A DNA stretch of 64,000 bases from Pseudomonadota bacterium (lineage in GTDB: Bacteria; Pseudomonadota; Alphaproteobacteria; JBCCHK01): the NCBI GenBank assembly GCA_039028835.1, contig JBCCHK010000004.1:104370-168369 (forward strand), written 5' to 3'. A program made the translations under genes and the position numbers. The notes below the pieces were generated by a model, which saw only the letters and a program-made list of their open reading frames with translations, ran no database searches and was not told the DNA's origin. Of this stretch, positions 33,650-39,882 are shown piece by piece; position 1 is the stretch's first letter; each line of letters begins with the position of its first letter.

Positions 33650-33869
33650 AACGCGCACGACGCAGGGGCAAAACTGCGCGGCGGTCTCAACAAGCACAGA
33701 TGTATGATGAACCCTCGGTCAAGGCCGCGCCTTGTGCGTCGGGCTTTTGTTATTTTGCTCTTTTTTGCTAGCATGGTTATCCGCTTGCCAAACAAGCAAC
33801 ACAAAGAGGTAGCGATGATAGTGTCTGTTGGCTCGGTTGTTGGGGATGCTAGATAAAATAAGGAGTGAG

Positions 33870-34307
33870 ATGATGACTTTTGGACAATCGATTAAAACCT
33901 GTTTCTCAAAATACGCAGTCTTTCGCGGGCGGGCGTCCCGCAGTGAGTTCTGGTGGTTTAACATCACCTTGACGCTGGTGGCGATCATTTTGGATACAGT
34001 GTCTCGCCTCTTTCCTGTGAGCTCGACCCCCGAGATGATTTTTTTAGGCATTTCACTGCTTATTTATTTAGCGACTTTGCTTCCTGTGTTGGCTGTAACA
34101 GTCCGACGGTTGCATGATCGTGATTTTTCCGGCTGGTGGCTTCTGCTGGTACTGATTCCTTTGCTGGGATGGTTAGTTTTATTCATTTTCATGGTGTTGC
34201 GCGGCACAGAAGGGGAGAATCGCTTTGGACCATCCCCATTGTTGGCCCCATCGCAGTCCCCACCGCAGGCCCCGTCCCAGGCAACAGTGCCGCCGTCCTC
34301 ATCATAA
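33870..34307 (+). CDS. DUF805 family inner-membrane protein (YhaH/YhaI-like)
   Basis: The motifs FRGRASRSEFWWF, RRLHDRDFSGWWLL, IPLLGWL and GTEGENRFGP are present. There is a strong RBS aaggagtg before ATGATG. Confidence 0.75.
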   Translation: MMTFGQSIKTCFSKYAVFRGRASRSEFWWFNITLTLVAIILDTVSRLFPVSSTPEMIFLGISLLIYLATLLPVLAVTVRRLHDRDFSGWWLLLVLIPLLGWLVLFIFMVLRGTEGENRFGPSPLLAPSQSPPQAPSQATVPPSSS

Positions 34308-34327
34308 CTGCCTATCATTAGAGAGCT

Positions 34328-35005
34328 ATGTTGATGGGTTTGAGTCTCCGGCGATGTGAGTTGCCGATCAAAGGGCTCTTTGCGGTTCTCCTTCTTGGGG
34401 TCATCGCGCTGACTGACAACAGCCAAGCCGATGGCCACGAGCATCGTCGCCATGTCGGTAGTTATGGGGCATGGATGACCTTTGAGATCATCGATACCTT
34501 TGAGGATCGAGCGGTGGCCTGGTCGGCGCGTGCGTCCGCGCGTGCCAGTGCGGGCGAAGGCAAGCCAGACGAAGAATCGCCCTGGCTGGAGATTTATTGT
34601 CGCTCCTTTCATGAGATGGGTTTGCGCGCGTCTTTTCCCGGCACGTTTGACCCGCCGCGCACCGCGAGCTTGCAACTCGATCCGGGTAGTGCGGCCCTTT
34701 CTGCTGTTGCAGGCACCGCGCCGCGGGTGACGATTCCCGATATCAAAATTGCCGACAACCCCACGTCGCTCACCGTAACGTTTCGCATCGACCGCGAGCC
34801 GATCATCAAAACCCGCGGGCAGGCGCCTGATCTGCTTGCCACGAATCCGGTCCAGGTGCGCCGAGTGCTCGCTAAGATGCGCCCGGGGCGCGAGATGCGG
34901 GTGCGAATCCAGCACAAGAACGCCGCGTATGTCTTACGCGTTGATCTGACGGGCGTGACAGCGGCAAGCCGGTGGGTTGCGCAAGAATGCGGCGCACGTT
35001 TGTAG
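34328..35005 (+). CDS. Hypothetical secreted protein (has a signal peptide and no recognisable domain)
   Basis: It has a hydrophobic N-terminus (LFAVLLLGVIALT) and two Cys residues (EIYCRSF, AQECGARL). It is sandwiched between DUF805 genes. Confidence 0.45.
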   Translation: MLMGLSLRRCELPIKGLFAVLLLGVIALTDNSQADGHEHRRHVGSYGAWMTFEIIDTFEDRAVAWSARASARASAGEGKPDEESPWLEIYCRSFHEMGLRASFPGTFDPPRTASLQLDPGSAALSAVAGTAPRVTIPDIKIADNPTSLTVTFRIDREPIIKTRGQAPDLLATNPVQVRRVLAKMRPGREMRVRIQHKNAAYVLRVDLTGVTAASRWVAQECGARL

Positions 35006-35103
35006 CGCGCCTTAGTTAGCCTTTGCCTTCGTGCTATCATTGTACCACTCGATGTGGGGCATAGATAAAAAATTGATGAATCCCAACCTGTAATGGATGA
35101 GAC

Positions 35104-36807
35104 ATGGTGATGCGCGCGATTCAACAATCCTGGCGAGACTTTGCCGCCTTTTCCGGGCGTACGGGGCGCGAAGATTTTATCACCTTGACCGTCTTTACGA
35201 TCTTCGCTCTCATCGTCGTGGTGATAGGTTTTCGCTTTGTCGGGGATCGCTTTTGGCTGGCCTACAGTTTGCAGTGGGCTGGACTGTTTTTTATTCTACT
35301 GCCCTATATGGCGGCGTTAGCGCGACGGTTTCGTGATGTTGGTCGGCCGCCGTGGCTGTGTTTGTTGGTTTTAGCACCGCCTTTTGGGTGGTTTGTGATT
35401 GCCGGTCTCGCTTTTCGTCCCGGTGTTTTATCCCAATGCGCCGTCGCGCAGAACTCATCGGCGGACATGGTGCCGGCGGTTAGAAAAGCCTTTGCAGGTT
35501 TCTTTAGTTTCCAAGGCAAGATTAACCGCGGTGAATACCTTTATTGGACCGCCTTTTGGTGGGGAGTGCTCTTGTTTATCTTTCCCTATCCCATTTTTGC
35601 TGAGATCGATTTAATCCTGGTGGGTCACGGTATGTCATCGGATGCTGAGCTGGCCTTAACGTTTACCGGTCTTTTTATCATCCTAACCTTTTTCCCCGGA
35701 ATCTCTATGAGCGTGCGCAGGCTGCGTGATGTCGGGATGAGCGGGGGATGGTGGTGGTTGTGCCTGATTCCATTTGGTGCGGGCACGGTCTTGCTTTTGC
35801 AGCTTCTTCCCACGCGGTCACAACAAGAACTGCCGGTAGAATCGGATGCCCCTACCATGTCATTGACCCAGGCCATTAAGCACGCCTATAGAACCTATGG
35901 GCGGTTTGCCGGGCGGGTGCCGCGGGCGGGTTTCTGGTGGTTTGTTGTTTTTGTGCCGTTGGCCTGGATTGCTTGGATGGTTATGCTCACGACTCTCGTG
36001 GATGTTCTTGAGGAGACCGGTGTTTATCGTGACACACATCTTGAAGAGATGTGGGGATGGATTGCCACTGTTACAGTCGTGATATCCCTGTTGGCGGGAC
36101 TTTTTGCTCTCGGGATTCCGGTGACGGCTTTATTCGTGCGGCGATTTCATGATTTAGGGCTCCCGGGATGGTTGGTGTTGCTATGGTTTTTTCCGGTTTC
36201 CGGGTGGCTTACGATACTGATTTTATTGACCCAGCAAGGCATGGCAGGCGCGAACACCTATGGCCCCGATCCCTTGGTGACGTCGATCTCATCCCAGCCT
36301 GTGCGCGCTGATGATTTTTGGCCAACCATTAAGCAGGTTTTTCGCCGTTCCTTTTCCTGGCGAGGTCGATCTGATCGGCGCACATTTCTTTATTGGCTAT
36401 TTTTCAGCGCAATTGCCATTAATAGTCTGCCGCTAGAAACAGAGGTAGAGTCTTTTGATATATTCTTATCGAGCGCAAATACTGCCCTCATGTTTTATTA
36501 TTGGCTGTTTAGGTTGATTATGTTTTTTCCTAACCTTGCGATTGTGATTCGCCGTTTGCACGATGTGGGCATGTCCGGTTGGTGGTTGATCCTTTTATTT
36601 CTGACGCAAATTTGTGTCCTTTGGTTTATCGCCGTGTATACCTATGGTCCTGCCGCCTATGATCTTGCGCACGATCCGGCATTATTTTCAGAAGTCATGG
36701 CCGTGGTTCTTAGACTGGTCACATTCATCCTAGCGATGATGGCTTTGCTCCTTGTATTGTTACAACCCAGTTATCATCCGCAGAAATCCAAACTTCCCGC
36801 GAGATAG
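35104..36807 (+). CDS. Membrane protein consisting of four tandem DUF805 domains
   Basis: The DUF805 signature (FSGR..R.EFW ... RRLHD.G.SGWW ... GxN.YGP) recurs four times. The four Arg-rich RRLHD-type motifs are ARRFRDVGRPPW, VRRLRDVGMSGGWWW, VRRFHDLGLPGW and IRRLHDVGMSGWW. Confidence 0.7.
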   Translation: MVMRAIQQSWRDFAAFSGRTGREDFITLTVFTIFALIVVVIGFRFVGDRFWLAYSLQWAGLFFILLPYMAALARRFRDVGRPPWLCLLVLAPPFGWFVIAGLAFRPGVLSQCAVAQNSSADMVPAVRKAFAGFFSFQGKINRGEYLYWTAFWWGVLLFIFPYPIFAEIDLILVGHGMSSDAELALTFTGLFIILTFFPGISMSVRRLRDVGMSGGWWWLCLIPFGAGTVLLLQLLPTRSQQELPVESDAPTMSLTQAIKHAYRTYGRFAGRVPRAGFWWFVVFVPLAWIAWMVMLTTLVDVLEETGVYRDTHLEEMWGWIATVTVVISLLAGLFALGIPVTALFVRRFHDLGLPGWLVLLWFFPVSGWLTILILLTQQGMAGANTYGPDPLVTSISSQPVRADDFWPTIKQVFRRSFSWRGRSDRRTFLYWLFFSAIAINSLPLETEVESFDIFLSSANTALMFYYWLFRLIMFFPNLAIVIRRLHDVGMSGWWLILLFLTQICVLWFIAVYTYGPAAYDLAHDPALFSEVMAVVLRLVTFILAMMALLLVLLQPSYHPQKSKLPAR

Positions 36808-36866
36808 CACCATCTGTGGTACCATAGATATAGATCTGCGCCTTAACCCGGAAGGAGTTTCTCACC

Positions 36867-37577
36867 ATGGATATGTCCGGCCAGCTTACAATTGCCGCAC
36901 CCCGTGATAGGGTGTGGGACGCGCTTAATGATGAGAAAATTTTGCAAGACGCCGTGCCCGGCTGTCAGGAAGTCGTGCGCGTGGATGAAACTCACTTTAC
37001 CGCCAAGGTGAAACAGAAAATCGGCCCGATCAGTGCGAGTTTTTCCGTTAAAATCGAACTAAGTGACCTTGATCCGCCGCAAGGGTATAAAATCTCCGGC
37101 AGTGGCGATGGCGGTGCGGTCGGTTTCGCCAAGGGCGGCGCCAGCGTGTCGCTGGTTGAGGTTGACGGCCAGACGACACTGTCTTATGAGGTGCAAGCGC
37201 AGGTGGGCGGCAAAATTGCACAACTCGGCGCCCGGTTGATCGACAGCGCGGCAAGAAAACTCGCCGCTCAGTTTTTTCGTGACTTCAAGCAAGCGGTAGA
37301 AGCCGCTCAGTTTTTTCGTGACTTCAAGCAAGCGATAGAAACCGCCAACGCGGTTGCTCCTACGCCCTCTACACCTGCCGCGCCTATGGCCGCTGTGTCC
37401 AACGCTGCCCCTGCTACCCCCGCCGATGCTCCACCGCCCACGAGCGCACATCCCGCAAAAGCACAAAAAACACTTTTGCGTTGGCCGGGGGCGCCCTCTG
37501 GTGGGGTGCGCTTGCTCTATTTTGCCATCATCGTCGCCGTGGTTGCGCTGGTCACGTGGCTGTTGACCACCCAATAG
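36867..37577 (+). CDS. CoxG-like SRPBCC protein (carbon monoxide dehydrogenase subunit G family) with a Pro/Ala-rich linker and a C-terminal transmembrane anchor
   Basis: The N-terminal 150 aa are of CoxG type (MDMSGQLTIAAPRDRVWDALND...GPISASF...SGDGGAVGFAKGGASVSL...LGARLIDSAARKLAAQFF). The C-terminus LLYFAIIVAVVALVTWLLT is hydrophobic. Confidence 0.75.
   Translation: MDMSGQLTIAAPRDRVWDALNDEKILQDAVPGCQEVVRVDETHFTAKVKQKIGPISASFSVKIELSDLDPPQGYKISGSGDGGAVGFAKGGASVSLVEVDGQTTLSYEVQAQVGGKIAQLGARLIDSAARKLAAQFFRDFKQAVEAAQFFRDFKQAIETANAVAPTPSTPAAPMAAVSNAAPATPADAPPPTSAHPAKAQKTLLRWPGAPSGGVRLLYFAIIVAVVALVTWLLTTQ
37266..37343 (+). repeat. Near-perfect 39-bp tandem duplication inside the CoxG-like gene, encoding AQFFRDFKQA(V/I)E(A/T) twice
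   Basis: The sequence gctcagttttttcgtgacttcaagcaagcg(g/a)tagaa(g/a)cc occurs twice with 2 mismatches. Confidence 0.9.
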
Positions 37578-38944: not shown

Positions 38945-39247
38945 TTAGCCCTTCATGCGGTTGATATGTTCAACCGCAATGGTGCCGCTGATGCGGAAAT
39001 AGACAACCAGGATGGCAAGACCGATGGCCGCCTCCGCCGCCGCGACAGCCAAAATAATGAGGGCAAAAATATGCCCCGCAACATCACCAGAAAAGCTAGA
39101 AAACGCGACAAAGTTTGTTGTCACCGAGAGCAAAATGAGCTCCACCGACATTAAAATCACAATCACGTTCTTGCGATTGATAAAGATTCCCGTCACCCCA
39201 ATGGTGAACAAAATCGCGCTAAGGACAAGGTAGTGCGTTAACGTCAT
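38945..39247 (-). CDS. nuoK: NADH-quinone oxidoreductase subunit K
   Basis: It is 100 aa and reads [32 protein letters not shown], which is canonical NuoK. Confidence 0.9.
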
Positions 39248-39882
39248 GAGCGATTCTTCGGTGACTTGCTCTTCGGGTCTTGCTTTTGTTTCGGAGCAAA
39301 GAAAGACTCGCCCCCTTGGCCACTCCCCACCGTTATGAGCTTGAGAACGTCGGCGGGTTTGCGCGCGGTTTGTGCGCCGATGTCTTGCCGGCGTACGTCC
39401 GTGCGGCGGCGCAGGGTCAGGGCAATCGCCCCGATCATGGCGACCAGCAGGATGATCCCTGCGGTCTGGAAAGGATAGACATAGACAGTATAGAGAACGC
39501 GCCCGATATCTTGCGCCGAGATCGGCGTGATCGTAGTGCGCTCCGGCATCAAAAAGGCCACGGTCAGCAATTGCGCGAGCAGGACAGCCCCCACCAGAAG
39601 CCCCAGCGGCAGGTAGGTCAAAAAGCCTTGCCGCAGGGCGGTAAAGTCCACATCCATCATCATCACGACGAATAAAAACAACACCGCCACCGCGCCGACA
39701 TAGACAATGACGAGAATCATCGCCAAAAACTCCGCGCCCAGCAGGACAAACAGCCCCGCAGCGGTAAAAAAGGTCATAATCAAGAGCAGGACCGCATGAA
39801 CAGGGTTGCGCACACTGATAACCCCAATCGCGCCCGCAATCAACACGGCGGCAAAGGCGTAGAAAACCACATCGATCAACAT
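39244..39882 (-). CDS. nuoJ: NADH-quinone oxidoreductase subunit J
   Basis: It has NuoJ-type TM helices ([26 protein letters not shown]). Its stop overlaps the nuoK start. Confidence 0.88.

Follow-up and report, generated by a model that had tools for sequence, protein, structure and literature searches.

The window analysed here is a 64,000-nucleotide stretch of contig JBCCHK010000004.1 (positions 104,370 to 168,369 of the forward strand) from assembly GCA_039028835.1 of a Pseudomonadota bacterium. At 35104-36807 on the + strand it carries a gene for an inner-membrane protein composed of four copies of the DUF805 domain (PF05656). The genes on the + strand are ordered atpG, atpD, atpC, a single-domain DUF805 gene, a 225-aa open reading frame (ORF), the four-copy gene and a CoxG/SRPBCC-like gene; downstream of the last of these lie ahcY, nuoK and nuoJ on the - strand, and then murJ. 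The reading frame of the four-copy gene is uninterrupted over its 567 codons. The version deposited at NCBI (MEM7046672.1, from a Pseudomonadota metagenome-assembled genome, MAG) has 565 aa and starts two codons later, at the ATG at 35110, which is better spaced from the GGATGAG ribosome-binding site than the start at 35104.

A Pfam scan matched PF05656 to the 567-aa ORF in four stretches (204.6 bits), and the quarters of the protein, scanned singly, all scored above the PF05656 gathering score of 25.7 bits (individual scores are given in the list below). The first-pass annotation of this DNA had read four DUF805 copies in the ORF. These scores confirm that 35104-36807 encodes one protein with four DUF805 units; the scan gave four stretches in place of a single DUF805 match among unrelated transmembrane (TM) helices. 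A local DUF805 hidden Markov model (HMM) made from 48 single-domain relatives placed its envelopes at aa 2-106, 122-239, 252-392 and 406-512, with gaps of 15, 12 and 13 residues between them.

Hydropathy and the secondary structure predicted by AlphaFold2 (AF2) showed in all four copies an N-terminal amphipathic helix followed by three hydrophobic segments, and by hydropathy the three linkers between the copies are free of hydrophobic segments. A 13th hydrophobic helix at aa 525-552 (Kyte-Doolittle peak 2.78) was also a helix in the AF2 model. Because the homologues all align onto D3 or D2-D3, AF2 was run on two halves separately. The half comprising aa 1-250 was modelled with a predicted local distance difference test score (pLDDT) of 81 and a predicted TM-score (pTM) of 0.61, and that comprising aa 245-567 with values of 76 and 0.52, respectively. 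The features of the gene, with the AF2 helices in aa, are as follows.

35104..36807, + strand: four-copy DUF805 inner-membrane protein gene; open ORF of 567 aa with four PF05656 matches
35104..35436 (aa 1-111), + strand: copy D1; 48.1 bits alone; the most degenerate copy, with RRFRD, without SGW and without the C-tail motif; AF2 helices 2-11, 22-44, 50-79 and 83-90 + 94-103
35461..35832 (aa 120-243), + strand: copy D2; 60.7 bits alone; FQGK..R and RRLRD, without the C-tail motif; AF2 helices 119-131, 142-172, 179-209 and 214-221 + 223-234
35857..36288 (aa 252-395), + strand: copy D3; 81.0 bits alone; the sole near-canonical copy, with FAGR..R, RRFHD, P..G and GANTYGPDP; AF2 helices 254-263, 274-305, 313-350 and 355-362 + 366-375
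36310..36660 (aa 403-519), + strand: copy D4; 52.4 bits alone; WRGR..R and RRLHD.G.SGWW, without P..G and with a degenerate tail; AF2 helices 402-415, 425-440, 453-487 and 494-500 + 504-510
36676..36759 (aa 525-552), + strand: extra 13th hydrophobic helix, outside every DUF805 copy and followed by the basic tail QKSKLPAR; AF2 helix at 281-308 of the modelled fragment, which corresponds to aa 525-552

Pairwise identity between the copies was 25-38% in a MAFFT alignment and 19-29% over the shared HMM columns. No DNA-level similarity was detectable among the four copies, so nothing in them could mislead an assembler. The Logan assembly of run SRR22824298 contains a contig of 3,587 bp that matches window positions 33706-37292 at 100% identity, with the same intact ORF and with four gene calls that are the same as in the window. 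Since this contig comes from the same strain, it supports the assembly and not evolutionary conservation. The first-pass annotation had named a frameshift or a misassembly of several adjacent genes as the case against a single ORF; a second assembler rebuilt the identical ORF, and the DNA holds no repeats. It is true that the source is a MAG, and that both assemblies represent the same strain and possibly the same reads. However, if two to four adjacent DUF805 genes had been joined by frameshift errors or in a chimeric MAG contig, three separate errors would have been needed to erase three stop codons in one frame, in DNA without repeats on which two assemblers agree over 3.6 kb. Moreover, two-copy relatives with equally short linkers are common. 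We consider such an artefact very improbable.

Conservation and origin of the copies

As a reference for conservation, we used 309 single-domain DUF805 proteins, in which 29 positions reach a conservation of 80% or more. D1, D2, D3 and D4 keep 12, 15, 23 and 14 of these positions, respectively, and the single-domain paralogue upstream keeps 27. The first-pass annotation had assigned the motifs F(S/A)GR..R.EFW, RRLHD.G.SGWW and G.N.YGP.P to each copy, which overstated their conservation: the N-terminal motif is merely approximate in all four copies, RRLHD.G.SGWW is exact in D4 only, and the tail is intact in D3 only (GANTYGPDP), degenerate in D4 (YTYGPAAY) and absent from D1 and D2. The His of RRLHD (His90), which is 99% conserved in the family, is replaced by Arg in D1 and D2; Trp27 is missing from D1, D2 and D4, and P..G is missing from D4.

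The core residues G19, R20, R23, P80 (in TM2), R87, R88 and D91 are common to all four copies, with K in place of R20 in D2. In contrast, the near-invariant set (W27, H90, S95/G96/W97, P105/G108 and the G123-N125-G128-P131 tail) is mostly kept by D3 and not by D1, D2 or D4. What is kept by all copies would thus be a structural and topogenic core (G-R..R, P and RR..D), and what is lost by three of them a probable functional site (His90, Trp27 and the GxNxYGPxP tail). This distribution of residues suggests that D3 alone retains the full conserved site on the cytoplasmic face (Arg/His/Asp and the GxNxYGPxP tail), and that D1, D2 and D4, which keep the core, probably act as structural partners. 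A likeness of RRLHD and GRxxR to nucleotide-binding motifs of the RxxD or RxxxR type was also considered and was dropped as unsupported pattern-matching.

The relationships among the copies were clear. BLOSUM62 scores over the 102 shared HMM columns were 114 for both D1-D3 and D2-D4 and 45-70 for the other four pairs, and the 13|24 grouping was best in 1,960 of 2,000 bootstraps (98%). The members of the pairs D1/D3 and D2/D4 also have indels in common. Judged by the aligned copies, this pairing shows that a two-copy A-B gene was tandemly duplicated to A-B-A-B, the route by which the four-copy gene was made. An identity of only 19-35% between the copies indicates that the fusion is old. Orthology to a sampled two-copy lineage was rejected: both halves of 43 two-copy proteins scored best against D3, without any correspondence to A and B. 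Since the two-copy halves resemble D3, the most canonical copy, DUF805 fusions probably arose repeatedly and independently.

Tandem DUF805 proteins in the databases

A domain-profile search accepted 7,962 of 8,000 scored candidates at E <= 1e-8, nearly all of them 123-160 aa long, in agreement with the description of DUF805 proteins as normally single-domain in the first-pass annotation. When 1.84 billion cluster representatives (clusters at 50% identity) were searched exhaustively with phmmer, 10,598 matched; only the four-copy protein itself fell below 1e-30, and the runner-up scored 110 bits. HMMER sums domain scores, so multi-copy proteins rise to the top of the list, and copies were counted in the best 150 of the 10,598 matches, a sample that could miss four-copy proteins whose copies have diverged strongly. 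In this sample about 104 proteins had one copy and 46 had two, P0012 had three partly degenerate copies, and the query was the only protein with four. P0014 and P0117 carried two DUF805 copies and a fragment. A two-copy profile search returned approximately 25 two-copy clusters at 90% identity (240-339 aa) and nothing of 400 aa or longer.

No orthologue of the four-copy protein was found by a word-indexed search of 5.8 billion proteins, by phmmer of the 1.84 billion representatives, among JGI metagenome contigs or in GTDB (one genome per species). As an architecture, tandem DUF805 is known and recurs, though it is minor; the four-copy form is represented by this protein alone in the databases searched. 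The suggestion of the first-pass annotation that the architecture is undescribed was therefore too broad, given the 46 two-copy proteins among the best 150 matches; it is the four-copy form that is new, alongside the one-copy and two-copy forms already known. The rarity of the four-copy form was upheld both by the absence of a second one among the best 150 of the 10,598 matches and by the lack of an orthologue in the GTDB genomes and JGI metagenomes.

The family itself is large and widespread; one query matched 10,598 clusters at 50% identity, and Escherichia coli has both YhaH and YhaI. With these two proteins and the upstream paralogue, the four-copy protein shares PF05656, the three hydrophobic segments, [FW]xG[RK]xxR, RRxHD and the Pro of TM2. 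Single-domain DUF805 proteins consist of one domain of 120-160 aa, whereas the protein described here has four copies, three of them degenerate, and an extra helix. The literature on DUF805 comprises passing mentions and assigns no function; the sole experimental phenotype that we found is that of YhaH as a phage host factor, which is needed for the infection of E. coli by phages PhiWec188 and PhiWec190 (PMC12548472). The correct insertion of YhaH depends on YidC (PMC3225971).

The two-copy tandem proteins from metagenomes (for example P0005, P0153, P0276, and P0283 from an Abditibacteriota MAG) show the same head-to-tail fusion and the same charge pattern as the four-copy protein. Their linkers of 3-17 residues contain no TM helix in most cases, again as in the four-copy protein. 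However, they are mostly canonical in both copies (approximately 100-130 bits per copy with the HMM), whereas three of the four copies are degenerate here. A minority of two-copy proteins (P0030, P0045, P0017 and P0031) has an extra hydrophobic segment resembling segment 3 after each copy, giving an arrangement of 4+4 and not 3+3.

Fusions of DUF805 to an FHA domain on its C-terminal side occur in three or more separate clusters (P0333, P0038 and P0095), a hint that the module may form the membrane part of signalling proteins linked to Ser/Thr phosphorylation. Together with the zinc ribbon-DUF805 proteins P0115 and P0284, these proteins contain the same module as the four-copy protein and show that it tolerates fusion at both ends; the partners are soluble signalling or zinc-binding domains and not further DUF805 copies.

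Membrane topology and assembly

If a DUF805 unit were a plain unit of three TM helices, linkers without a hydrophobic segment would force neighbouring copies into opposite orientations. The distribution of positive charges did not follow this expectation. Averaged over 252 single-domain proteins, Lys and Arg residues (K+R) numbered 4.75 in the N-terminal region, 2.99 in the RRLHD loop, 1.77 in the C-tail and 0.39 in loop 1. The same bias recurred in 62 two-copy proteins, in either half, and in each of the four copies described here, and even-numbered or downstream copies showed no charge adaptation to inversion. By its charge, the C-tail resembles a segment on the inside. By hand count, a parallel arrangement with both termini of each unit inside (N-in/C-in) places approximately 34 K+R inside and 6 outside, compared with approximately 24 and 16, respectively, for the best alternating arrangement of 13 TM helices.

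Covariation within the domain was analysed by mean-field direct coupling analysis (DCA) of 438 domain sequences (effective number of sequences, Neff, 383), of which 341 had gap-free termini (Neff 290). The analysis recovered the expected contacts: TM1 paired with TM2 in antiparallel fashion, the N-helix lay against TM2 at its cytoplasmic end, and FSGR contacted RRLHD. It also coupled the C-tail with the N-motif and the RRLHD loop: the pairs 22-132 and 93-121 scored 3.39 and 2.54, respectively (shuffle maxima 1.3-2.0), and further tail pairs were 93-127 (1.93), 20-128 (1.72), 93-126, 20-131, 92-115 and 91-125. Tail pairs above 1.0 amounted to 22 of 735 with the cytoplasmic side and 2 of 441 with the periplasmic side (Mann-Whitney p = 1.8e-4).

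Fused domains pointed in the same direction. FHA domains read phosphothreonine in the cytoplasm, and P0333 (68 bits), P0038 (44 bits) and P0095 (62 bits) have such a domain directly after DUF805 on the C-terminal side, without any intervening hydrophobic segment. P0115 has an N-terminal zinc ribbon, and P0284 has one in the linker between its domains. A C-terminal YhaH-GFP fusion gives membrane fluorescence in E. coli, in a screen limited to cytoplasmic C-termini (PMC3225971). Taken together, four independent but indirect lines, namely the charge bias, the covariation, the domain fusions and YhaH-GFP, make it fairly well supported that both ends of a DUF805 unit are cytoplasmic. Termini on the same side contradict the naive 3-TM reading of DUF805, which is perhaps the more useful conclusion for work on YhaH and YhaI.

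With both ends in the cytoplasm, the third hydrophobic segment would not cross the membrane, and units could be joined head to tail, all oriented alike, with no need of linker helices. In the AF2 models, segment 3 of every copy is broken into two short helices where P-x-x-G lies, and the segment would most likely be re-entrant, as a helix-break-helix at that conserved motif. SemiSWEET/SWEET and PnuC proteins are built of 3-TM units that act as dimers and also exist fused as 3+1+3, and SWEETs depend on an inversion-linker helix for the parallel arrangement of their two bundles. DUF805 resembles them in its small units of three hydrophobic segments that also occur fused, but the inversion-linker helix is absent between the copies; the sole extra helix of the four-copy protein sits after D4. 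For the 4+4 two-copy proteins, an N-in/C-in topology might be accommodated by two consecutive re-entrant segments.

We propose that a fused two-unit A-B gene was doubled in tandem to A-B-A-B, and that each unit would consist of an amphipathic N-helix with [FW]xG[RK]xxR, a TM1-TM2 hairpin that ends in RRxHD, and then the re-entrant third segment. Units that start and end in the cytoplasm could be concatenated in parallel by short linkers, in any number. The four units would lie next to one another, forming either a covalently linked pseudo-tetramer or two pseudo-dimers in which D3 alone is fully competent, and a single chain would in this manner reproduce the even-numbered homo-oligomer of ordinary single-domain DUF805 proteins. 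We hold this explanation as a whole, with its A-B-A-B gene, N-in/C-in units and pseudo-tetramer or two pseudo-dimers, with moderate confidence; the pseudo-oligomeric packing of the copies is its most likely form, and a transport or channel-like activity may go with it.

The series of one-, two- and four-copy proteins with hardly any three-copy ones, the A-B doubling and the presence of three degenerate copies together form the pattern of an even-numbered oligomer. The four-copy and two-copy forms jointly argue for an even-numbered, parallel working assembly. KcsA-type channels are tetramers of one-repeat chains, K2P and TPC channels are dimers of two-repeat chains, and Nav and Cav channels are monomers with four repeats, which makes a 1x/2x/4x series in which the repeats diverged after fusion. 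The DUF805 series is analogous, including a 4x form from a doubled 2x form, as an analogy and not as homology. A Foldseek search of the models against the PDB found no similar fold (best E 0.85, TM-scores up to 0.18), and a profile search of PDB sequences with DUF805 returned only noise.

Several observations weigh against the proposed topology and assembly. The break in segment 3 of D2 is a single residue in the AF2 model, which is compatible with a kinked full-length helix; segment 3 is approximately 21 residues long, which is also a normal length for TM helices; and covariation within segment 3 stayed below the shuffle threshold, at noise level. The column-shuffle null used for the DCA ignores phylogeny, and we therefore rate the covariation as moderate evidence. 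The 13th helix and its basic tail (KSKLPAR) fit a cytoplasmic C-terminus better, and under N-in/C-in units this C-terminus requires segment 3 of D4 to span the membrane, unlike that of the other copies. The 13th helix thus either takes the last 15 residues to the periplasm or returns the basic tail to the inside if segment 3 of D4, which lacks P..G, spans the membrane. As for the assembly, the first-pass annotation had suggested an oligomer whose stoichiometry is fixed by the fusion. This is reasonable in that it fits the 1x/2x/4x series, the A-B duplication and the three degenerate copies, but the inter-domain confidence of the half-models is only moderate (pTM 0.52 and 0.61). The protein lacks orthologues in the databases searched that could show purifying selection on the architecture, and the G+C content at third codon positions (GC3) of the four-copy gene, 0.55, is lower than that of the neighbouring housekeeping genes (0.66-0.72).

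Some of these observations would suit an alternating topology, in which true 3-TM units with their ends on opposite sides follow one another as A up, B down, A up, B down, with 13 TM helices in all; such a protein would resemble the inverted repeats of many transporters derived from dual-topology ancestors. It would account for three hydrophobic segments per unit without a linker helix, the A-B-A-B pattern would suit two orientation classes, and the one-residue break in segment 3 of D2 looks like a kink. A 13-TM N-out/C-in arrangement also puts the basic tail inside, with a weak K+R bias (approximately 24 in and 16 out), and the extra helix after each unit in P0030, P0045, P0017 and P0031 appears as if some lineages had corrected opposite ends. 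However, the same strong charge asymmetry recurs in single-domain proteins, in the halves of the 62 two-copy proteins and in the four copies, and N-in/C-in units segregate the charges far more sharply (approximately 34 inside and 6 outside). Covariation links the C-tail to the N-motif and the RRLHD loop and not to loop 1, and the C-terminal FHA domains, the N-terminal and linker zinc ribbons and the fluorescence of YhaH-GFP (PMC3225971) all speak for the cytoplasm. Dual-topology proteins of the EmrE or Fluc kind have a near-zero or opposite K+R bias and unit ends on opposite sides, whereas the bias of DUF805 is strong and identical in single, A/B and four-copy proteins, and its fusions and tail covariation point, indirectly, to the same side. 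We consider the alternating topology unlikely.

It is also conceivable that the gene is an evolutionary accident, a recent lineage-specific fusion and duplication that is tolerated and slowly decaying, with only D3 and the paralogue doing the work of the family. The protein stood alone in each database searched, three of its four copies lack near-invariant residues (His90, Trp27 and the tail motif among them), a canonical single-domain copy is found close by, and GC3 lies below that of the flanking genes, with its lowest value (0.46) in D4 and the tail. However, the 1.7-kb frame is intact, without stops or frameshifts, even though the copies diverged long ago. Every copy keeps its three hydrophobic segments and the G-R-R-P-RR-D core, which with the intact frame and the old divergence speaks for constraint. 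Each copy still has a Pfam score of 48-81 bits, and the AF2 half-models are reasonably confident for all four (pLDDT 76 and 81). Moreover, degenerate copies are the norm in functional pseudo-symmetric fusions. On balance, a decaying accident seems rather improbable to us.

The parallel, pseudo-oligomeric reading that we prefer can be taken further, at a clear cost in confidence. DUF805 might represent an unrecognised class of small oligomeric membrane proteins, channel- or transport-like, in which each subunit has two TM helices and a re-entrant hairpin and the subunits form a parallel tetramer with a cytoplasmic Arg/His/Asp site; the four-copy protein would then be a natural single-chain pseudo-tetramer. 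We regard this as a speculative and quite unlikely extension. If the channel-like reading were true, the four-copy protein would be a ready-made target for the structure and stoichiometry of the family, the counterpart of Nav/Cav to KcsA. A single chain of 567 aa is far more tractable than a 14-kDa protomer for cryo-electron microscopy or native mass spectrometry. The interest of the four-copy protein is modest as it stands and would rise if the pseudo-tetramer or the channel-like reading proved true.

Neighbouring genes

Two further genes lie between atpC and the four-copy gene.

33828..34307, + strand: single-domain DUF805 paralogue; PF05656 at 108.6 bits; 159 aa from the TTG at 33828
34328..35005, + strand: intervening ORF of 225/223 aa with a signal-peptide-like N-terminus (RR, a hydrophobic core and SQA)

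The first of these is the separate single-domain DUF805 gene that the first-pass annotation had placed about 800 bp upstream, and its Pfam score leaves that assignment in place. Its start is more likely the ATG at 33873 (144 aa), as in the Logan gene call, and its product is nearest to D3 (38% identity). The intervening ORF begins 20 bp after the single-domain gene, ends 98 bp before the four-copy gene and is called as a gene in both assemblies; it is possibly co-transcribed with the DUF805 genes. It had no match in Pfam, NCBIfam, PADLOC or PHROGs, and no gene of the locus matched the PADLOC defence-system models or NCBIfam. An opposite-strand ORF of 283 aa (34064-34915) overlaps the intervening ORF and is probably spurious.

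The DUF805 modules are also carried by phages, as indicated by phrog_12855 (annotated as 'membrane protein' in the moron and host-takeover category), which matched all four copies (142.5 bits) and the paralogue (103.9 bits). Phage-carried DUF805 is of interest given the role of YhaH as a phage host factor (PMC12548472). The GC3 values were 0.55 for the four-copy gene (0.46 for D4 and the tail), 0.57 for the single-domain gene and 0.60 for the CoxG-like gene, compared with 0.67-0.72 for the flanking genes atpD, ahcY, nuoJ and murJ and 0.67 for the intervening ORF. The low GC3 of the DUF805 and CoxG-like genes could reflect low expression or foreign origin.

The CoxG/SRPBCC-like gene (36867-37577, + strand) encodes a protein with a Pro/Ala-rich linker and a C-terminal hydrophobic anchor. 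It contains an in-frame 39-bp tandem duplication at 37263-37345 (2.1 copies, 95% match), which repeats the peptide AAQFFRDFKQA(V/I)E, and the Logan contig stops exactly there. On the - strand, nuoJ (Oxidored_q3) and nuoK (Oxidored_q2) form an isolated pair at 38945-39882, preceded by the divergent murJ and followed on the same strand by ahcY and not by nuoL, nuoM or nuoN; this looks like a split NADH dehydrogenase gene cluster.

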